From assembly GCA_030612025.1 (NCBI GenBank), contig JAUWOR010000003.1:1-64000 (forward strand): a stretch of DNA of 64,000 nucleotides. The letters run 5' to 3'. The position numbers and the translations under genes were made by a program. The stretch is from Dehalococcoidia bacterium (GTDB taxonomy: Bacteria; Chloroflexota; Dehalococcoidia; GIF9; AB-539-J10). Position 1 is the stretch's first letter, and every line of letters begins with the position of its first letter. The notes below the pieces were generated by a model. It was not told the DNA's origin. It saw only the letters and a program-made list of their open reading frames with translations, and ran no database searches. Shown piece after piece: positions 14,884 to 25,630 of this stretch.

Positions 14884-15435
14884 TTATTTGGTCTTAGCCT
14901 TGCGCCTGAAGTAATAAATGCCACAGGCCAAGAGCAATACACCAGCGACAATCCCGACAATCAATGCTATATTTGGGCCACCCTTTACTTCCTCGCCTGT
15001 TGATACCAAGAGGCGAATATAGTAATTTACTACCAATAATTCCTTCTCCTCCGGCGTGATACTCAACCATATCTCCCAATCCTTACCGGCCCACTTTTGC
15101 TGTGACGGAATAGCTACTTTTACCCTTACCTCAGCTTCAGAGTTGGCTTGTACCTCAACTTGGTGAGGGAAGCTGACCCAGCTACTATTAGGAAACTCAG
15201 CCCTTCCTTGCCTTCTTTCCGATTCCTCAGGGTTATGAGTAGTTAAGATAAAAGTATGACTTGTATTGTCCTTATTATCGATAGTGAGGTTAAATTCAGC
15301 CGCCTCGCCTGGAGGTAAATTATCTATTTTTACCTCAACTGGGGAGACGCTGAAACTCCAGGCCATGACAAAAGAGGGCAAAAAGATGGCTGATAAAGCT
15401 ACAATAAGACAAATGTATTTTATCTGACGCGCCAT
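14884..15435 (-). CDS. Secreted beta-sandwich protein with C-terminal membrane anchor
   Basis: Signal peptide, SVSPVEVKI beta-rich domain, C-terminal TM plus basic tail RRKAKTK. Confidence 0.75.
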   Translation of the reverse strand: MARQIKYICLIVALSAIFLPSFVMAWSFSVSPVEVKIDNLPPGEAAEFNLTIDNKDNTSHTFILTTHNPEESERRQGRAEFPNSSWVSFPHQVEVQANSEAEVRVKVAIPSQQKWAGKDWEIWLSITPEEKELLVVNYYIRLLVSTGEEVKGGPNIALIVGIVAGVLLLACGIYYFRRKAKTK

Positions 15436-16010
15436 CAGGCAATCACAGTGCTTATGGTGATATGCGTTTCCATTTGTCTATCACCGTAGAAATGGCCGGT
15501 ACTGGTATCGGCTAGAGGGGTTAGCGATTTAAGCCCAAATTGCTTCTGGTCGCCATTACCGATAAGGGTTAAAGGGCCTCCGTCGTCGCCATTGGGCTTT
15601 ATATGTTTCATAACAGTTGGCGCTTCAGTGATGGGAGTATAACTATCCGCTTTATCACCTGCTATGTGATACAACAATGCATATTTTCTCACCGCCGTGG
15701 TACCATCGCTAGTTAATTCCCACGTGTATGCATCGGGATAATCAACCCACACAGCAGCTTCGCCTTTAATATAAATATCTACCACGCAATTGCCTTCATT
15801 GTTTATAGTGCACCAGGTTGGATTTGTCAGACACTCTGTATTTGGCTCCACATCTCCTATATTCCACTCTGTTGGTTCCAGTGTAATTTCTACGTACTTA
15901 TCAGTAAGCACGGTAATGGTTACAGTGCTATCATCCGCGGCTAGTGCCGATAAACAAGGAATTAAAGCCAGGATAATAGCTAGTGCCATGCTTACAATTC
16001 GCCTATTCAT
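15435..16010 (-). CDS. Secreted surface protein (paralog of 16080-16640)
   Basis: Signal peptide RIVSMALAIILALIP; shared W.IG.V.PNTE, WCT..N.GNC, KQFGLK, METHI.IS. Confidence 0.75.
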   Translation of the reverse strand: MNRRIVSMALAIILALIPCLSALAADDSTVTITVLTDKYVEITLEPTEWNIGDVEPNTECLTNPTWCTINNEGNCVVDIYIKGEAAVWVDYPDAYTWELTSDGTTAVRKYALLYHIAGDKADSYTPITEAPTVMKHIKPNGDDGGPLTLIGNGDQKQFGLKSLTPLADTSTGHFYGDRQMETHITISTVIA

Positions 16011-16079
16011 CTGTCCTACCAGTTTCCTCAGAACTTTTTCACAAATTTAGCCAAAACAGGCATCTAGTTCGCTACAGCG

Positions 16080-16640
16080 TTAGGCAGCCACGCCACTTAT
16101 GATAATATGGGTTTCCATTTCCCCACCACCGTAGAAATAATTCTCGTAGTCAGGCGAGGGAGTTTTCAGTTTCAGCCCAAATTGCTTCTTATTCCCCTCC
16201 CCCATTCCAAGGCCAGAGTAAAATTCGCTTCCTATTCCGCTTTCATCCTTGCTGATGAGCACGTAGCTGACTTGATCTGCTTTCTCATACCATAGTACAT
16301 ATACTTGCGTGCCGTTACTCCCATCGTCACTAAGTGTCCACTTATACACGCTAGGGCTCTCAGTCCACACAGCGTCGTCACCTTCAATGTAAGTATTCAG
16401 CATGCAATTGCCCCTATTAGTCATAGTGCACCAAGTTTTTTCTGGATTTGTTTTATACTCCGTGTTTGGCCCTACTTGTCCTATTTCCCAGCTTGTGGGG
16501 TTCAATTCGATTTCTAGCACTGTCTTAGTGGTCGCGGTGATAGTTATAGTTCCAGTGCTACTCTCCTCAGCTATCGCCAGCAAAGAAGGGATTAAAGCCA
16601 AGATAATGGCTAAGGCAACGCTTACAATCCGCCCGCTCAT
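16080..16640 (-). CDS. Secreted surface protein (paralog of 15435-16010)
   Basis: Same signal peptide and motifs as its neighbour. Confidence 0.75.
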   Translation of the reverse strand: MSGRIVSVALAIILALIPSLLAIAEESSTGTITITATTKTVLEIELNPTSWEIGQVGPNTEYKTNPEKTWCTMTNRGNCMLNTYIEGDDAVWTESPSVYKWTLSDDGSNGTQVYVLWYEKADQVSYVLISKDESGIGSEFYSGLGMGEGNKKQFGLKLKTPSPDYENYFYGGGEMETHIIISGVAA

Positions 16641-16781: not shown

Positions 16782-16853
<72 letters not shown>

Positions 16854-16920
16854 CTTTTATACTTGCGCCACAGATTTTACGCGGAGGGCAGCGACTACCC
16901 CTCTTAAGAGGAGAAGCGGA

Positions 16921-17364: not shown

Positions 17365-17455
17365 CACTGTCAGACGCCACGCATTCTCCCCAGAGCCAAG
17401 TAAATCACCTTCCGCAGAGCCTGCTAAGCAGTTTAATAGTAAGTGGTAATTCCCT

Positions 17456-17494
17456 AGCCTTTGGTCACTGGTTCAAATCCAGTCGCTACCACTT
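17456..17494 (+). repeat. Degenerate copy of tRNA-Met 3' end (att-like site 1)
   Basis: AGCCTTTGGTCACTGGTTCAAATCCAGTCGCTACCACTT, three mismatches to 16818-16856. Confidence 0.9.
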
Positions 17495-18740: not shown

Positions 18741-18975
18741 AACTTCACTCCGCTATTAATTTATTGACTCTCTATAGATCTTAACCACTCAGTAGTAACT
18801 TCACATACTTACCTTGCCACATTATGTGGATTTTACTCTTGCGTATTCACACAATCAATGGACACAGCGTCTTGACCTTAGTCAGATCGACTACTATCGT
18901 AGTATGACTATGATTGAGAAACTGGAAAGGATGAGTTATTAATGAATGTCGCTATTAAATATCTAGTTAAGGCTG

Positions 18976-19023
18976 GGACTCATAAGCCTTTGGTCGCTGG
19001 TTCAAATCCAGCCGCTGCCACTT
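18976..19023 (+). repeat. Perfect 48-bp copy of tRNA-Met 3' half (att-like site 2)
   Basis: Identical to 16809-16856: GGACTCATAAGCC...GCCGCTGCCACTT. Confidence 0.95.
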
Positions 19024-19130
19024 CTTGTTCTAAGGTTGTCATCGTAGCAAGCTCAAATATGAAATCACCTCTAAGATATTGACATGGCCTTGTGAACTTC
19101 TTGCGTGGATCGACAAAAATCCCTTCAAGC

Positions 19131-19186
19131 CCAGAATTATCTCTCGGTGTGGTCCAGTCCATCCAGAATGTCGGTGAGAAATTTCC
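19131..19186 (+). repeat. Bipartite intergenic repeat, copy 1
   Basis: CCAGAATTATC-29 nt-TCGGTGAGAAATTTCC. Confidence 0.7.
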
Positions 19187-19247
19187 TATGCAAATTAGCT
19201 TGGACTGCTAGACCTTAGCAGCCTTATTTCTAAGACCACTCCAGTAA

Positions 19248-20030
19248 TTACCCAGGACTCTCCCATACTTGAGCTGCTGGTTTTCTCCAACGAAGCCATA
19301 GGGCCCACGCCGTTACCAGCACTGCCACCACGGCAACATAGATTTCCACGTGAACGACGGTAAAGAGCCCCGCATGCAACAAAACAGCGCTATAGTTTAA
19401 TAAGCCATGCAGGCAGGAGGCTATCAGGTAGAACTGCCATCCCCAACCCTTCGCTAGACCATAGCCGGCCAGTGCGGAAAAAGCAGTATGAGCGGCTACA
19501 GCAAAAAACCGCTCCCAAAATCCAGCCAGTGCCATGACGCCGCCAGTTTGCACTGCCTCCCAGGTCCACCCTGAGGCAAAGATAGTATTGTGTGCCCACT
19601 GCGCTTCAAAGATGCCGAATCCAGCTCCAGCCACAGCGCCGATAGCCAATCCCAGTTTAGGGTCAATACTCCTGCCACTACGCCACCAGCAGGTAACCAC
19701 CGGCACCAGCTTTGCCCCTTCCTGAACCAGCCCACTGAGGAGTATTTGTGGTATCCCGGCAAGCAGAATCCAGCTCAATAGAACTTCCTCACTCCAGAAG
19801 TGATTCAGTGCTTGACCCGTCCAAATCTGTAAGGGAATTTGAATAAAGCTAACAGCAGCCAGAGTCAGAATGGCACTGCCTACGAGAACCGCCCAGAGCC
19901 AGGGTTTCCTAAAGAGCGGTGGCCGGTAACCAGCCAGCCAAATTGCACCGAAGGCTACAGCCAGACCAATCCCCAAGGCGCTCGGATTTTGGAAGAAAGA
20001 GACGAAAAAACTAATCATAAACTCAGTCAT
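19248..20030 (-). CDS. PrsW-family glutamic-type intramembrane protease
   Basis: Multi-TM; QEGAK, GFGIFE, AAHTAFSA, LHGLLN motifs. Confidence 0.8.
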   Translation of the reverse strand: MTEFMISFFVSFFQNPSALGIGLAVAFGAIWLAGYRPPLFRKPWLWAVLVGSAILTLAAVSFIQIPLQIWTGQALNHFWSEEVLLSWILLAGIPQILLSGLVQEGAKLVPVVTCWWRSGRSIDPKLGLAIGAVAGAGFGIFEAQWAHNTIFASGWTWEAVQTGGVMALAGFWERFFAVAAHTAFSALAGYGLAKGWGWQFYLIASCLHGLLNYSAVLLHAGLFTVVHVEIYVAVVAVLVTAWALWLRWRKPAAQVWESPG

Positions 20031-20149
20031 GAACTCCTCCTACTTTTTAAATTGGTTTCTATCCAACTCACACTCATTATATCTCCATGCGAAATAAAAA
20101 GGTATGCCCATTAAACTAGAAGGCTCAATCATGCGCTAAGGCCAAGCTG

Positions 20150-20207
20150 CTAGAATTATCCCCCGTGTGGGGGTGCTTTTCTGTCACAACATCGGTGAGA
20201 AATTTCC
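20150..20207 (+). repeat. Bipartite intergenic repeat, copy 2
   Basis: CTAGAATTATC-31 nt-TCGGTGAGAAATTTCC. Confidence 0.7.
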
Positions 20208-20316
20208 AATGGAAATTTGAGGCGATTACCTTTGGATAGTCTCATACTTTTAAAGTCATCGTGATAGTAATAGTATAATAGTATTACATTTACTCGCTTA
20301 AGCTACGCAATGATTT

Positions 20317-21441
20317 GTGATGGATGACTTAGCTATTGATTATCCATACCTAGCACGCTTCTGCAATGAGGAGAGTGTCGATATAGTGTCATATACTCGC
20401 ACTCATCAAAGTTTGATATTGAAAGACATAGTTGCTGATTCTATTCCAATGAAACTAAGACGTAGTTATGATGCTCGTAAATCTATCCTTAATCAATATC
20501 TTGAACTGGCATATAGGCACAACATATTAGACCTGGATCGTAGAAGCAGGCTAAAGGGTAAGGATAGCATACGGTTCTGGTCATTAATTAATGAACTAAA
20601 GGCAGCAGCATGGTTCGAGGGGCAAGGATTGGTGATAGACTTTGACCCCTCAAGTCTTGGTGGTGGTAAGGGAGAATTTGAAGCCTTCTCTCGGCAAGGC
20701 GAAGTGTTCGTTGAGGTAAAAACCTTGTTTGGAGACAAAGAGATGCTTGGCCAATATAGTCTATTGTCTAGGCTGGCGGACTATCTGGAAAAGATAGGAT
20801 TACCAATCTCAACGATAGAGTTAATTAGCTACCCCCGTAATTTTTGTGAGGACGATTTAGACAAACTTTTGACCCGAATTGGTTTGCATCTTTTGCGATT
20901 CGTACCAGCAATTAAAAGAGGCGAATCAAAAGTGAGTCGTTATAATAGTAGGAAAGGCTTGGTTATCGAGTTTGAATTATTGCCTGGAACATCTGAGGTT
21001 GAGCAAATAGCATATGGCGGCTTTATTGATATAGAAGATAGTCTCAAATCTAAGTTAGGGATGTCAGTTAGAGGATGGGATCCCAAACTTCAACTTTCAA
21101 CGAAAGATATCCCTTCCATTGTCATAATATGCGACCAGGGTAGCTGGAGTGACCCTATAATTGAGGGAATACTATATGGAAACAGGTTAGGTACTCTAGG
21201 CAGCACAGGAACTGTATGGTATGAAAGAAAGAGAGATGGAAGGTGGGATAATACGTATCCGAGCCGCCTGAGTGCAGTTGGTATATTCAAAAGTTCTTTG
21301 GATATATTTCCCTCCAGTGTGGATATGTACTTGTGTCCTAATCCACTCTATCCTTTGCCTCGATCGCTAATGAGCGACACCAATATTCGTTGGTGGCAAT
21401 TAGGTAAAGACAAGGTATCAATTACTGAAGTTAGCGCTTGA
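20317..21441 (+). CDS. Hypothetical protein, restriction-endonuclease-like fold
   Basis: FWSLINELKAAAWF...GEFEA...VFVEVK, C-terminal LSAVG...NP. Confidence 0.65.
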   Translation: MMDDLAIDYPYLARFCNEESVDIVSYTRTHQSLILKDIVADSIPMKLRRSYDARKSILNQYLELAYRHNILDLDRRSRLKGKDSIRFWSLINELKAAAWFEGQGLVIDFDPSSLGGGKGEFEAFSRQGEVFVEVKTLFGDKEMLGQYSLLSRLADYLEKIGLPISTIELISYPRNFCEDDLDKLLTRIGLHLLRFVPAIKRGESKVSRYNSRKGLVIEFELLPGTSEVEQIAYGGFIDIEDSLKSKLGMSVRGWDPKLQLSTKDIPSIVIICDQGSWSDPIIEGILYGNRLGTLGSTGTVWYERKRDGRWDNTYPSRLSAVGIFKSSLDIFPSSVDMYLCPNPLYPLPRSLMSDTNIRWWQLGKDKVSITEVSA

Positions 21442-21445
21442 ATTT

Positions 21446-21497
21446 CTAGGATTATCCCCACGGTGGCTTGGATCCTGCCGCAAGGTCGGTGAGAAAT
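21446..21497 (+). repeat. Bipartite intergenic repeat, copy 3
   Basis: CTAGGATTATC-29 nt-TCGGTGAGAAAT, starting 5 bp after the stop of 20317-21441. Confidence 0.65.
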
Positions 21498-21660
21498 CTG
21501 CTACAAAAGATGCTCCCAATATGCCCCCAAAGAAATTGGACGGAGTAAAACTAACCAAGACTGCCTCAAAATAGCCATTCCCCTTATGCTGTCTTCTAGT
21601 TGAGGTTGATTGGGAACAGAATTGATTTGAGGGTCACATCTCAATCAGCTTACTCCTGTT

Positions 21661-22143
21661 TCAGGGCAGGTAAGTTATCTTGGAAGGTGGTTTTCCATGT
21701 ACTTCAAACTCTATTCCGGCTTCTTTGAACAAGTCCTTGAAAGAGTCGTCAGCATAGCTGCCAAAGGTTACGAGGCGCTTTATTCTAGCATTCACCAGCA
21801 TCTTGGCACAGAGTATGCATGGTGGATGCGTAGCATAGACCGTGGTGCCAGTAAGGTCAACGCCGTGGAGCGCTGCTTGTATGATTACGTTTTGCTCCGC
21901 GTGAATTCCTCGGCATATTTCATGCCTGGTTCCAGTTTCTATATGCATCTCGTCTCTGAGGCAACCGAGCTCAAGGCAATCTTTAAGCCCTGAAGGAGCG
22001 CCATTATAGCCCGTGGATAGTATGTGCTTGTCTCTCACTGCCACAGCACCTACATGGTGCCGCCGACATGTGGAACGTTCTGCTACCACAGTAGCTATCT
22101 TGAGAAAATATTCATCGAGCTCCGGCCTGGTTACTTTTTTCAC
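21661..22143 (-). CDS. dCMP deaminase (ComEB-like)
   Basis: RSTC, TGYNGAP, HAEQN, PCILC zinc deaminase motifs. Confidence 0.92.
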   Translation of the reverse strand: MKKVTRPELDEYFLKIATVVAERSTCRRHHVGAVAVRDKHILSTGYNGAPSGLKDCLELGCLRDEMHIETGTRHEICRGIHAEQNVIIQAALHGVDLTGTTVYATHPPCILCAKMLVNARIKRLVTFGSYADDSFKDLFKEAGIEFEVHGKPPSKITYLP

Positions 22144-22147
22144 TTTT

Positions 22148-22690
22148 TCACTCCAACGTGGATAGAACTCGTTCCGCTTCCCTCTCCAACTCTTCCAAAG
22201 AAGCTTCGTTTACTATGGTAAAGTCAGCCATGGCAATTGGCCCACCCTTGTTGGTATTCTCTATCTCCGCTTTATCTCGACTGGCCGCTTGCTCAACCGT
22301 CAAAGGCCGTTTTGCTCTATTCCCGAGCCTTGCATGCCTGGTAGCAGGCGAGGCCCAGACAGCAACTGTAGTGAACCCTTCACCATAGCATTCCTTCAAT
22401 AAAGTGTGCTCCTCCCAGGAGTAAAGTCCATCCACCACGACGCCTGACGATTTCAGTGAGGTTTCAATCCTGGGTAGGTTCAACTTGGCGTATGCGGCCA
22501 TCCCGTGTTCCTTTCTCAATTGCTCCCTGATGTAACGTTCGTTCTTCTCATTCAGTTCAAGTCCCCGCTTCTTGATTTCTTCCTCTGTAATATCTCCAAA
22601 CCGAACTTTCCTAAAGCCATTCTTCTCAAATACCCTGGCTACCTCCGATTTGCCCGCACCTGCCATACCAACAATTGCTACCACTTTCAT
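22148..22690 (-). CDS. P-loop nucleotide kinase (dephospho-CoA/adenylate kinase-like)
   Basis: GMAGAGKS Walker A, VVVDGL, RD...E, IAMADFTIVN. Confidence 0.85.
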   Translation of the reverse strand: MKVVAIVGMAGAGKSEVARVFEKNGFRKVRFGDITEEEIKKRGLELNEKNERYIREQLRKEHGMAAYAKLNLPRIETSLKSSGVVVDGLYSWEEHTLLKECYGEGFTTVAVWASPATRHARLGNRAKRPLTVEQAASRDKAEIENTNKGGPIAMADFTIVNEASLEELEREAERVLSTLE

Positions 22691-23384: not shown

Positions 23385-24380
23385 TTAAAGTCTTAAAGAC
23401 TGTGCATAACAATATGAGATAGTTTCACCTGTTTCCGTAGTTTGATAACCTTCTTCCTGATGTGAATACGCTGATATGTCGCTAGCGTTATAGTCTTTGA
23501 AATATTCCTTAACCAATGCCAGAATGCGCAATTCACTTTCAGAAAAAATGTTTAGGTTTGGTTCCTTCTTTGTTATGAATTTCTCGCCCGTAAAGTATGG
23601 ATAGTCTATTTCCTCAACCTCGAGAGCACCTTGTCGGATAAGGATGGGATAATACAAATCGTAGTTATTTGGAGCTGGACCAAACGGGATGTGCGCGTAT
23701 TGAACTCCAGTAATCGAGACTGTGTATTCTTTGAAGTGCTTGAAATCAGCATAGAATAGGAGTTTATTCAATTTCGTTTTTAACTCCCCACCCTTGCAAA
23801 GGTATAGGATTGCATTGAAGAAGTTATCTCTCTCAAAGCTCCTAAAACCGGTGTACTCATCAGGCTCCTGGTCTTGAAAAGTTGAAATGACAAAGCGTTC
23901 TAGGGAGCTGACTTTGAGCTCCGAAGTTTGTTCTAATGCCTTGAGTACCGTTTTTTGCTTATCCTCAGATAATGCACTCATAGGGCTAGTCACAAGCCTT
24001 CGCAGGTTTTCGGCATCCATAGCCAACCGAAGCAATCTATCGTGAGTTTCATCCTGAAGCTTCCCAGTTTCATATCTACTTATCGTTGCTCCACCAAGAC
24101 CCAACAGGTTTGCTAGGTCACTTTGAGTCAGGTGATACTTACGGCGGAAGTTACGAATTTCCTCGGGCTGAAGCATATTATGCTTGGAGCGGTAAAGGCG
24201 ATAGGCCTTTTCAAAAGGATCGCTCGTTGAATCAGGGACCCAAAATTCCTCCCCGCACTCCAAACATTTATAGTACTCCATTTCAACCGTTATAGGTTCA
24301 TTCCGAATTGTCAGTTGTTTCTCCTCTTTAATCAATTCTAGCTTATCAGTATTATCGCAAACTGGACAACTTAATTTCAT
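23385..24380 (-). CDS. MqsA-like antitoxin (zinc finger + XRE HTH) fused to SocA/DUF4065 domain
   Basis: CPVC...CLEC, LTQSDLANLLGLGGATISRYETG, KLNKLLFYADF...ITG..Y...PFGP. Confidence 0.88.
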   Translation of the reverse strand: MKLSCPVCDNTDKLELIKEEKQLTIRNEPITVEMEYYKCLECGEEFWVPDSTSDPFEKAYRLYRSKHNMLQPEEIRNFRRKYHLTQSDLANLLGLGGATISRYETGKLQDETHDRLLRLAMDAENLRRLVTSPMSALSEDKQKTVLKALEQTSELKVSSLERFVISTFQDQEPDEYTGFRSFERDNFFNAILYLCKGGELKTKLNKLLFYADFKHFKEYTVSITGVQYAHIPFGPAPNNYDLYYPILIRQGALEVEEIDYPYFTGEKFITKKEPNLNIFSESELRILALVKEYFKDYNASDISAYSHQEEGYQTTETGETISYCYAQSLRL

Positions 24381-24405
24381 TCTACCTCCTTATTTGCTTC
24401 CTTTT

Positions 24406-24786
24406 TTATGTTTTATCTCGGAAATAATATTTTAGTGGTTTCTCAGCTACGTGAAAAGATAGAATCCGAACCATCCGGCCATGCTGATCGCCAGATAGCT
24501 TGAGTTTAATATATATTTCTTTTCCCCGAATAATTTTTCCGAATATCCAAACATCGCCTCTAATTCTTGGGTCTTTAGTTGGGCCGGAGCAGTAATCCAA
24601 AACCGATAAGGACAGAATCTCCTTTTTGACATCTTCCCGAGTCATCTCCAGCTCAGTCAAGGTATTAACATTCTTTTTACGTGCAGTTGAAAAACTCCAC
24701 CTCCACCTATCCTGATAGCTGTTTTGTATCGCATACTTTGCCTCCAATAGAAAGCTTCTAACTGCTGATTGCTTGCCTGCACACAA
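24406..24786 (-). CDS. MqsR-like toxin
   Basis: RKKN..TL..L, DYCSGP, VWIFGK...EIYIKLK...LSFH; upstream of an MqsA-like gene. Confidence 0.8.
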   Translation of the reverse strand: MCAGKQSAVRSFLLEAKYAIQNSYQDRWRWSFSTARKKNVNTLTELEMTREDVKKEILSLSVLDYCSGPTKDPRIRGDVWIFGKIIRGKEIYIKLKLSGDQHGRMVRILSFHVAEKPLKYYFRDKT

Positions 24787-24907: not shown

Positions 24908-25091
24908 GACATTGGTGGCAGATTTATCATTTGATAAGGACTTCTTGGCCAGCCCAGCTATACGCGGTTGCCCAAAAAGCCTTATGGACCACTTTCTGGG
25001 GCTTCCCTGCATCTGTGTAACACGGACGAGAAGTTCCCTCACCTCTGTGGCGGGTGTAAATCTAGCTGTTATGTTTCTGAAGGGAGTTATT

Positions 25092-25130
25092 AGCCTTTGG
25101 TCGTTGGTTCAAGTCCAATCCTTACTGCCA
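25092..25130 (+). repeat. Degenerate copy of tRNA-Met 3' end (att-like site 3)
   Basis: AGCCTTTGGTCGTTGGTTCAAGTCCAATCCTTACTGCCA. Confidence 0.75.
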
Positions 25131-25496: not shown

Positions 25497-25587
25497 TTCA
25501 CTACCTCCCTGAAAGCTGGCAATTGGGGGAATAGTATCACATCCTAAATCCGTGATTTAAGCATGGTAGCTCAACATCAGCCATCCG

Positions 25588-25630
25588 ATAATCCCTTGGT
25601 CGCTGGTTGAAATCCAGCCGTTGCTACTTT
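25588..25630 (+). repeat. Degenerate copy of tRNA-Met 3' half (att-like site 4)
   Basis: ATAATCCCTTGGTCGCTGGTTGAAATCCAGCCGTTGCTACTTT versus ATAAGCCTTTGGTCGCTGGTTCAAATCCAGCCGCTGCCACTTT. Confidence 0.85.

Follow-up and report, generated by a model that had tools for sequence, protein, structure and literature searches.

Direct repeats at the borders of single-gene modules in tRNA-Met islands: a possible att-like recombination site in a family of uncultured sediment bacteria

Several systems are known in which genes accumulate as modules at short sites. Integron arrays combine attI and attC sites with the integrase IntI, and CALIN arrays, in the account drawn on here, stand without an integrase (PMC4889954). 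The Dehalococcoides ssrA genomic islands are tandem, multigene elements bounded by 20-bp direct repeats of the ssrA 3' end with extra conserved bases around them; in the sections of that work used here, many lack an integration module, mobilization in trans is proposed, and the recombinase named is the serine recombinase DsiB (PMC3146451). In Acinetobacter, plasmid dif modules hold one or a few genes between short sites and are shuffled among replicons, and the passages cited assume that the host XerC/XerD acts on them (PMC6449649, PMC13141974). Here we analyzed a window of 64,000 nucleotides (positions 1 to 64,000 of contig JAUWOR010000003.1, Dehalococcoidia bacterium), in which a repeat of about 70-75 nt occurs three times within an island at a tRNA-Met gene. 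The repeat belongs to a family of sites with sharp borders and a defined placement, at which modules were gained, lost and reordered among relatives. With moderate confidence, we read it as an att-like site for the recombination of single-gene modules, nested within tRNA-Met islands in one family of uncultured sediment bacteria. To our knowledge, few single-gene cassette systems are known beyond integrons and the Acinetobacter dif modules, and none in this small-genome sediment lineage; a narrow literature word search, with supplements outside its scope, found no published description of the motif or system.

We characterized the repeat in the window and in the whole genome (1,400,681 bases, 19 contigs, 95.6% complete). 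As the preliminary description of this DNA had stated, the three copies are direct repeats on the plus strand, with gaps of 29, 31 and 29 nt between ATTATC and TCGGTGAGAAAT (Table 1). The 12-mer TCGGTGAGAAAT occurred exactly three times in the window, always inside a repeat copy, and the same three places were its only exact occurrences in the genome; when one mismatch was allowed, just three more sites appeared, all unrelated. Since only about 0.008 exact matches are expected by chance (arithmetic estimate for 64 kb and both strands), chance is excluded for the 12-mer. The unit proved longer than first noted and runs through CTAGAATTATCC, a core of 29-34 nt, TCGGTGAGAAAT and TTCCTAYGGAAAT, with conservation extending beyond the 12-mer as YTSCWAYRGAAAT. 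An alignment of 18 distinct copies, taken from this genome, from relatives and from metagenome contigs, covered about 75 columns and gave a consensus of about 75 nt, nTnCTAGAATTATCCCCCGTGTGGGTGCAnTTnnGnCGCAACGTCGGTGAGAAATTTCCTATGGAAATTG. The alignment showed invariant positions in both the left and the right arm, arm positions that hardly vary, flanks 5' of CTAG that share no similarity, and a right-arm dyad, GAAA|TTTC, centered on two invariant bases. The core, earlier described as variable with a conserved length, turned out to be semi-conserved, with CCCCCGTGTGGGTGCAGTTGAGCCGCAAC common to many copies. A fourth, diverged copy lies on contig C8 of the same genome (60311-60383) and scored 30.4 bits in the first profile search and 54.7 bits in the second. 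The profile separates two classes, true copies with at least 38 bits and chance pattern matches with at most 16.7 bits.

The contents of the intervals between copies were then compared. Each interval of the window contains one open reading frame (ORF) of at least 80 aa, in agreement with the single gene claimed for it, and one such ORF, in either orientation, was found in each of the seven firm inter-site intervals, which measure 1015-1422 nt from start to start; an eighth interval, in genome G099, depends on a weak second copy of 13.8 bits. The assignment of the first gene to PrsW on the minus strand was borne out by a match to the Pfam family PrsW-protease (PF13367, E 2.1e-9). The label 'nuclease-like' given to the second gene is unsupported, because its 374-aa product had no match in Pfam, NCBIfam or PADLOC; its neighbors in the protein Atlas are all unnamed. 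Copy 3 begins 4 nt past the stop codon of this gene (TGA at 21439-21441). The cargo set as a whole comprises PrsW and two proteins without a known family, and one-sided modules carry an MFS transporter, an Rce1-like protein and an SRPBCC protein.

To locate the module borders, we relied on homology between the window, related genomes and metagenome loci. The results showed that in G003 the left flank and core of copy 2 are followed, directly after TCGGTGAGAAAT, by the right flank of copy 3, and that the 374-aa module is absent; G002 skips the same module with the same junction. Because the core of copy 2 is joined to the right flank of copy 3 at this point, the crossover maps within the 12-mer. 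Homology of the PrsW module begins at window positions 19167-19175 in four independent contexts (G002, L042, L043 and L047) and ends at 20203-20207. This module has five kinds of left neighbor, namely a tRNA fragment with spacer (window, G003, G001, G004 and G006), a NucS-like candidate defense gene (G002), a 393-aa module (L042), a 111-aa ORF (L043) and the 374-aa module (L047). Its right neighbors are of three kinds: the 374-aa module (window), the conserved flank (G002, G003, L039, L043 and L056), and 87 nt followed by a tRNA fragment (G006). In L047 the two modules are in reverse order compared to the window: tRNA-Met, site, 374-aa gene, site, PrsW. A core of the copy 2 type comes after PrsW ahead of three different right neighbors, and a core of the copy 3 type comes after the 374-aa gene ahead of two. 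The core is thus tied to the left and not to the right neighbor, as expected with exchange to the right of the core.

Contigs from Logan, derived from sediment runs of other studies, extended these comparisons. Three joints that bridge the modules were found at the sites, 20163-21481, 20171-21477 and 19142-20195, each with a different core between its two ends. A further contig, from run X5 (depth 6.3), leads from 20164 through the repeat, with a new core, back to 19174; this is the form expected of a circular or a tandem PrsW module, and the joint may represent either, as the contig alone cannot tell which. A 1415-nt contig stops at 21504, just beyond the right arm of copy 3. As these joints come from contigs, no joint frequencies are derivable from them. 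'Empty' platforms were present in G042 and G027, where tRNA-Met or its fragment is followed by a spacer, one site and the flank. Filled, empty and permuted arrays are therefore all represented among relatives, the pattern by which tandem accretion of elements bounded by direct repeats is recognized.

Taken together, these comparisons suggest the action of a site-specific recombinase at the repeat, and we propose the following mechanism. Each module would consist of one gene carrying its own site (left arm, core and 12-mer) at one end. A circular single-gene module with one site would recombine with a resident site, strand exchange occurring in or beside the invariant GAGAAAT / GAAA|TTTC block, in or next to TCGGTGAGAAAT. 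In the product, the module would be preceded by the left arm and core of the resident site and followed by its own left arm and core, now in front of the resident right side, such that every junction would be made of the upstream module's core followed by either the start of the next module (TTCCTAYGGAAAT) or the conserved platform flank. A mechanism of this kind would explain the direct repeats, the left-linked cores, the conserved 13 nt at module starts, the empty platforms and the permutations. We infer that the likeliest catalyst would be a trans-acting tyrosine recombinase, namely an island integrase as in G099 or the host Xer-like pair, and the array in this genome is probably a fossil or dependent on a helper in trans.

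The recombinases of this genome were searched for with PF00589, which gave three matches. Two are Xer-like proteins of 289 and 312 aa, and the third is a 74-aa remnant within the island. The 312-aa protein, encoded on C8, scored 195.6 bits with XerC and 186.4 bits with XerD, under the equivalog cut-offs, and has the character of a host Xer-type protein; the 289-aa protein is encoded on C16. No serine recombinase was found in the genome, at its completeness of 95.6%. At two loci of G099, intact tyrosine recombinases of 339 and 394 aa, both generic Xer-like, lie across the tRNA fragment from the site and are transcribed divergently. The identification of the 74-aa frame as a tyrosine recombinase remnant held, the match being a C-terminal fragment of Phage_integrase (Table 1). 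The suggestion that this remnant had served the repeat did not hold to the same extent, as its sole link is 36% identity to one G099 integrase beside a tRNA fragment and the motif. Of the earlier proposal of cassette recombination sites nested in a tRNA island, what remains is the repeat as marker of module borders, the gain, loss and reordering of modules, the junctions at the right arm and the tRNA-Met setting, without a tie to the remnant beyond that identity.

Several observations weigh against the att-like reading. The 12-mer is also the longest identity block, so the position of the breakpoints alone is no proof of site-specific cutting; homologous or microhomology-mediated exchange would put breakpoints in the 12-mer too. 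The MFS-linked cores of L044 and L054 agree only in their 5' halves, and their 3' halves differ. In G006, the left edge of copy 2 is the exact point at which homology to the window ends, with a tRNA fragment after it, which makes this left edge a junction as well. The arrays are short, with at most three sites, and most contexts are metagenome contigs or metagenome-assembled genomes (MAGs). No recombinase is tied to the repeat, this genome having only the Xer-like pair and the remnant and no dedicated enzyme, and the two motif-adjacent integrases of G099 are only 25% identical to each other; in these two cases, the co-occurrence with one integrase clade that had been put forward as a check was not seen.

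The strongest competing explanation takes the repeat to be an attP arm or accessory sequence of tRNA-Met islands, to which an excisionase, a bending protein or the arm domain of an integrase binds, and not the crossover site; the internal copies and the shuffled modules would then result from homologous recombination between such repeats after tandem accretion and deletions. We regard it as unlikely, though worth serious attention in view of the setting of the repeat. The first copy in view lies 66-171 nt past a tRNA-Met gene or 3' fragment on the same strand in 14 of 25 loci, including loci behind a second, different tRNA-Met gene (G000 C8, G003 C121 and G099 C7). The same explanation would suit the G099 integrases, placed on the other side of the tRNA fragment, the homologous spacers of the window, L047 and L042, and the arrangement in G006, where tRNA-Met, spacer, site and PrsW form a unit that ends at a tRNA fragment like a mini-island. 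A distance of 66-171 nt is loose for an arm site, however, and copies 2 and 3 as well as four other internal copies stand without any tRNA fragment or spacer. Moreover, their upstream flanks are module-specific right up to CTAG, which on this explanation would demand repeated deletions to one exact base, and RecA-type exchange works poorly on identity blocks of only 12-25 nt. Among the remaining loci, the nearest tRNA-Met fragment is 766 and 4854 nt away in two, and none is in view in nine, four of which have a module ahead of the copy. On the other side of the array, a non-coding flank of about 130 nt after the last copy is kept in eight loci, irrespective of the next gene.

A second explanation, which we consider improbable, casts the repeat as a functional cis element, for instance a terminator, an insulator, a small RNA or the binding site of a regulator, that rides with hot-spot genes, the rearrangements being incidental. 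It would fit the GC hairpin and T-rich run of copy 2, the right-arm dyad, which could suit a dimeric DNA-binding protein, and the position of the repeat next to the PrsW gene in several genera. The adjacent genes are nevertheless in both orientations and of unrelated families, and the structural predictions point the other way. Fold z-scores of the three copies on both strands ranged from -2.44 to +1.28 and the structures differed among copies; for the last copy with its flank, the RNAalifold covariation term was unfavorable on both strands and gave a structured RNA no support. Rfam at the gathering threshold returned two tRNAs only in the window, and at E values up to 10 it gave no match on any copy in 18900-21700. 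Counts of promoter-like and terminator-like matches were within those of shuffles. Two other origins were considered and dropped. A coding fragment is excluded by stop codons and by indels with lengths not divisible by 3, and derivation from the tRNA-Met 3' half, suggested by about 16 of 31 matching positions by eye, was abandoned since neither profile search of this genome, the first listed up to E 100, gave the tRNA genes a score and Rfam showed no tRNA-like match on the copies. Finally, an artefact, whether from similarity arising by chance or from metagenome assemblies that are chimeric at a short repeat, is very improbable. The evidence does come mostly from the MAGs and metagenome contigs mentioned above, and unitigs of run X4 are broken at the copy 3 right arm. 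Against this, the 12-mer is confined in the genome to its three exact occurrences within 2.4 kb, junctions of the same types were seen repeatedly in separate assemblies and studies, and assembler word lengths usually exceed such identical blocks.

Whether the att-like site could be a known one was judged on the 18-copy alignment, which supports the earlier statement that the motif matches neither integron attC nor canonical dif: it has no attC boxes and no 11-6-11 dyad. RYYYAAC and GTTRRRY boxes are absent from the site ends in the alignment of 18 copies, where the two ends carry CTAGAATTATC and GGTGAGAAATTTCCTA, respectively. A single GTTGAGC/GCAAC pair is present, within the core and with 3 nt between its members; this pair is not conserved, and the junctions map to TCGGTGAGAAAT, not to G|TT. 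No IntI-type integrase was found, the NCBIfam integron-integrase model scoring 63.7 bits for the C8 protein and 49.4 and 63.6 bits for the G099 pair, compared to a cut-off of 265. By inspection, the consensus contains no 11-6-11 dyad, its sole dyad being the spacerless GAAA|TTTC, and all copies are direct in every array. For comparison, a canonical dif-like site was sought in the genome, without a convincing candidate (best dyad 6 of 11 among 63 pattern matches).

To assess how widely the repeat occurs, profile searches covered the family and wider samples were scanned by pattern. A sequence-only covariance model matched 12 of 119 genomes, in 6 of the 20 genera of the family, a patchy spread. 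The strict pattern matched 13 of 202 genomes of the order; after profile rescoring the matches were real only in G000 (the genome of the window), G002, G003 and G085, and in the 83 genomes of the order outside the family this pattern revealed no real copy. In the other nine matched genomes, 8 loci from 7 were rescored and reached at most 8.3 bits, mostly in coding-like sequence; the G073 locus (L010) and the second G163 locus (L018) gave no profile match up to E 10. The reversed-pattern control returned 5 matches in the order scan. The relaxed pattern had no match outside G000 when 400 further genomes sampled from the class were scanned, and viral contigs had none to the two-arm pattern and one chance match to the right arm alone. 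In metagenome contigs, 19 loci were found, of which 9 were real; L051, one of these 9, is not independent, being a record identical to the G002 contig. A contig scan with the right arm written as TCRRGTGAGAAAT, which fits only the C8 variant, gave 7 matches, all rejected at 11.6 bits or less by profile. The repeat thus has further copies, is placed non-randomly, is non-coding and does not stand upstream of one conserved gene, each of which the preliminary description had left to be checked.

Table 1. Features of the tRNA-Met island region in the window.
Feature	Position	Strand	Evidence and details
Intact tRNA-Met (CAT) gene, head of the tandem island array	16782-16854	+	ARAGORN; Rfam tRNA, 70.4 bits
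tRNA-Met 3' fragment, island boundary	17447-17494	+	81% identical to the gene; repeat family D1, blastn
tRNA-Met 3' fragment, boundary before the repeat array	18976-19023	+	48 nt, 100% identical to the gene; repeat search, blastn
Spacer from tRNA fragment to copy 1	19024-19130	+	5' part homologous to the L047 and L042 spacers
Repeat copy 1	19131-19201	+	left arm CCAGAATTATC, core, TCGGTGAGAAAT at 19171-19182, TTCCTATGCAAAT; profile match 19123-19201, 58.1 bits
Module 1, unique part	19183-20149		one gene, 19248-20030 (-), PrsW-family membrane protease
Repeat copy 2	20150-20221	+	12-mer at 20192-20203; profile 68.9 bits; GC hairpin, then T-rich run
Module 2, unique part	20204-21445		one gene, 20317-21441 (+), 374 aa, without a family
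Repeat copy 3	21446-21518	+	12-mer at 21486-21497; profile 65.3 bits
Conserved non-coding right flank	21498-21628	+	alignments, blastn; hairpin GCTCCCAAT ... ATTGGACGGAGT with variable loop
Tyrosine recombinase C-terminal remnant, 74 aa	22776-23000	+	Pfam Phage_integrase, E 6.2e-7, profile positions 125-169 of 172
tRNA-Met 3' fragment	25083-25130	+	71%; repeat search
tRNA-Met 3' fragment, last island boundary in view	25582-25629	+	79%; repeat search, blastn

The surroundings of the array were also surveyed (Table 1). The presence of one intact tRNA-Met gene and four 3' fragments identifies tandem islands, and the gene and fragments bound segments of 0.5 to 6.1 kb; on contig C3 of G099 (L090), six tRNA-Met fragments lie within 8 kb. 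In the conserved flank, the loop of the hairpin at 21528-21562 varies in length and sequence among loci, and one change on both sides in G085 preserves a pair. After the flank, at 21661-22690, there is a pair of dCMP deaminase and AAA-kinase genes. In G085 this pair lies 6.3 kb from the repeat, inverted and among housekeeping-type genes, and hence platform and pair are not a fixed unit. Further inside the island (23385-24786) are genes for an MqsR-like toxin (126 aa) and a fused MqsA/HTH/SocA-Panacea antitoxin (331 aa); this toxin-antitoxin pair also adjoins the kinase gene in G042 (L093 3186-4576), in the opposite orientation. Just upstream of tRNA-Met, at 15435-16640, two neighboring paralogous ORFs on the minus strand (191 and 186 aa) share DNA blocks that are 74-81% identical and spaced 618-645 nt apart; the same pair is found in G002.

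The second tRNA-Met locus of this genome (G000:C8:60109-64847, corresponding to L027 8110-12848) has a different tRNA-Met gene, with the diverged repeat copy 123 nt downstream. Compared to G002 and G004, this copy lies within a 3,463-bp insertion between tRNA-Met and the Xer-like gene; G002 and G004, which are without the insertion, have the tRNA followed directly by the gene for the 312-aa Xer-like recombinase. A flanking repeat that would explain the C8 insertion was looked for and none was found. In G002, the gene to the left of the PrsW module (L025 9748-10842) matched PADLOC PDC-S11 (E 5.5e-151) and has a NucS-like nuclease domain, and a tRNA-Ser gene (L025 8032-8107, minus strand) lies within the same island.

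A broader possibility, which we put forward tentatively, is that these loci represent a second kind of gene-cassette system, without sequence relationship to integron attC, in which single genes would be captured, excised and reordered beside tRNA-Met at an att site of about 75 bp, in the streamlined genomes of these sediment bacteria, by Xer-like tyrosine recombinases in trans (host Xer proteins or island integrases). If the repeat is recombinogenic, it would offer an att sequence that is short, defined and open to testing, perhaps also a compact tool for recombination, and the flexible gene pool of these uncultured organisms could be catalogued straight from metagenomes. If it is only an arm sequence of the islands, it would still be a useful marker of the ends of tRNA-Met islands in the family.

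Compared with the described systems, the loci resemble integrons and CALIN arrays in being arrays of mostly single-gene modules, each with its own site of variable center at one end, in having the crossover at one edge of the site such that the next module supplies the last bases of the site, and, as in CALIN arrays, in occurring without an integrase nearby. They differ from integrons in that the repeat has no RYYYAAC/GTTRRRY end boxes and the junction is not G|TT. Fold predictions for the three copies, with arms that hardly vary, gave no consistent single-strand structure. Here the genes are in both orientations, no IntI was found, arrays have at most three sites, and the array stands beside a tRNA-Met att core. 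dif modules have 28-bp XerC-spacer-XerD sites in alternating orientation, whereas the sites here are about 75 nt long, all direct and without the 11-6-11 dyad. As in dif modules, so far as the accounts used here describe them, a dedicated recombinase is lacking, and this genome has no intact tyrosine recombinases other than the Xer-like ones. The window itself resembles the Dehalococcoides ssrA islands, as they are presented in the sections consulted, in being a tandem array bounded by att-core repeats, here the tRNA-Met fragments. In contrast to those islands, the internal repeat does not derive from the tRNA, each module is a single gene of 1.0-1.4 kb and this genome yielded no serine recombinase. 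The system works like integron arrays, dif modules or ssrA-island accretion, yet its sequence does not show the features that define the first two, and in site, module size and recombinase type it departs from the third.

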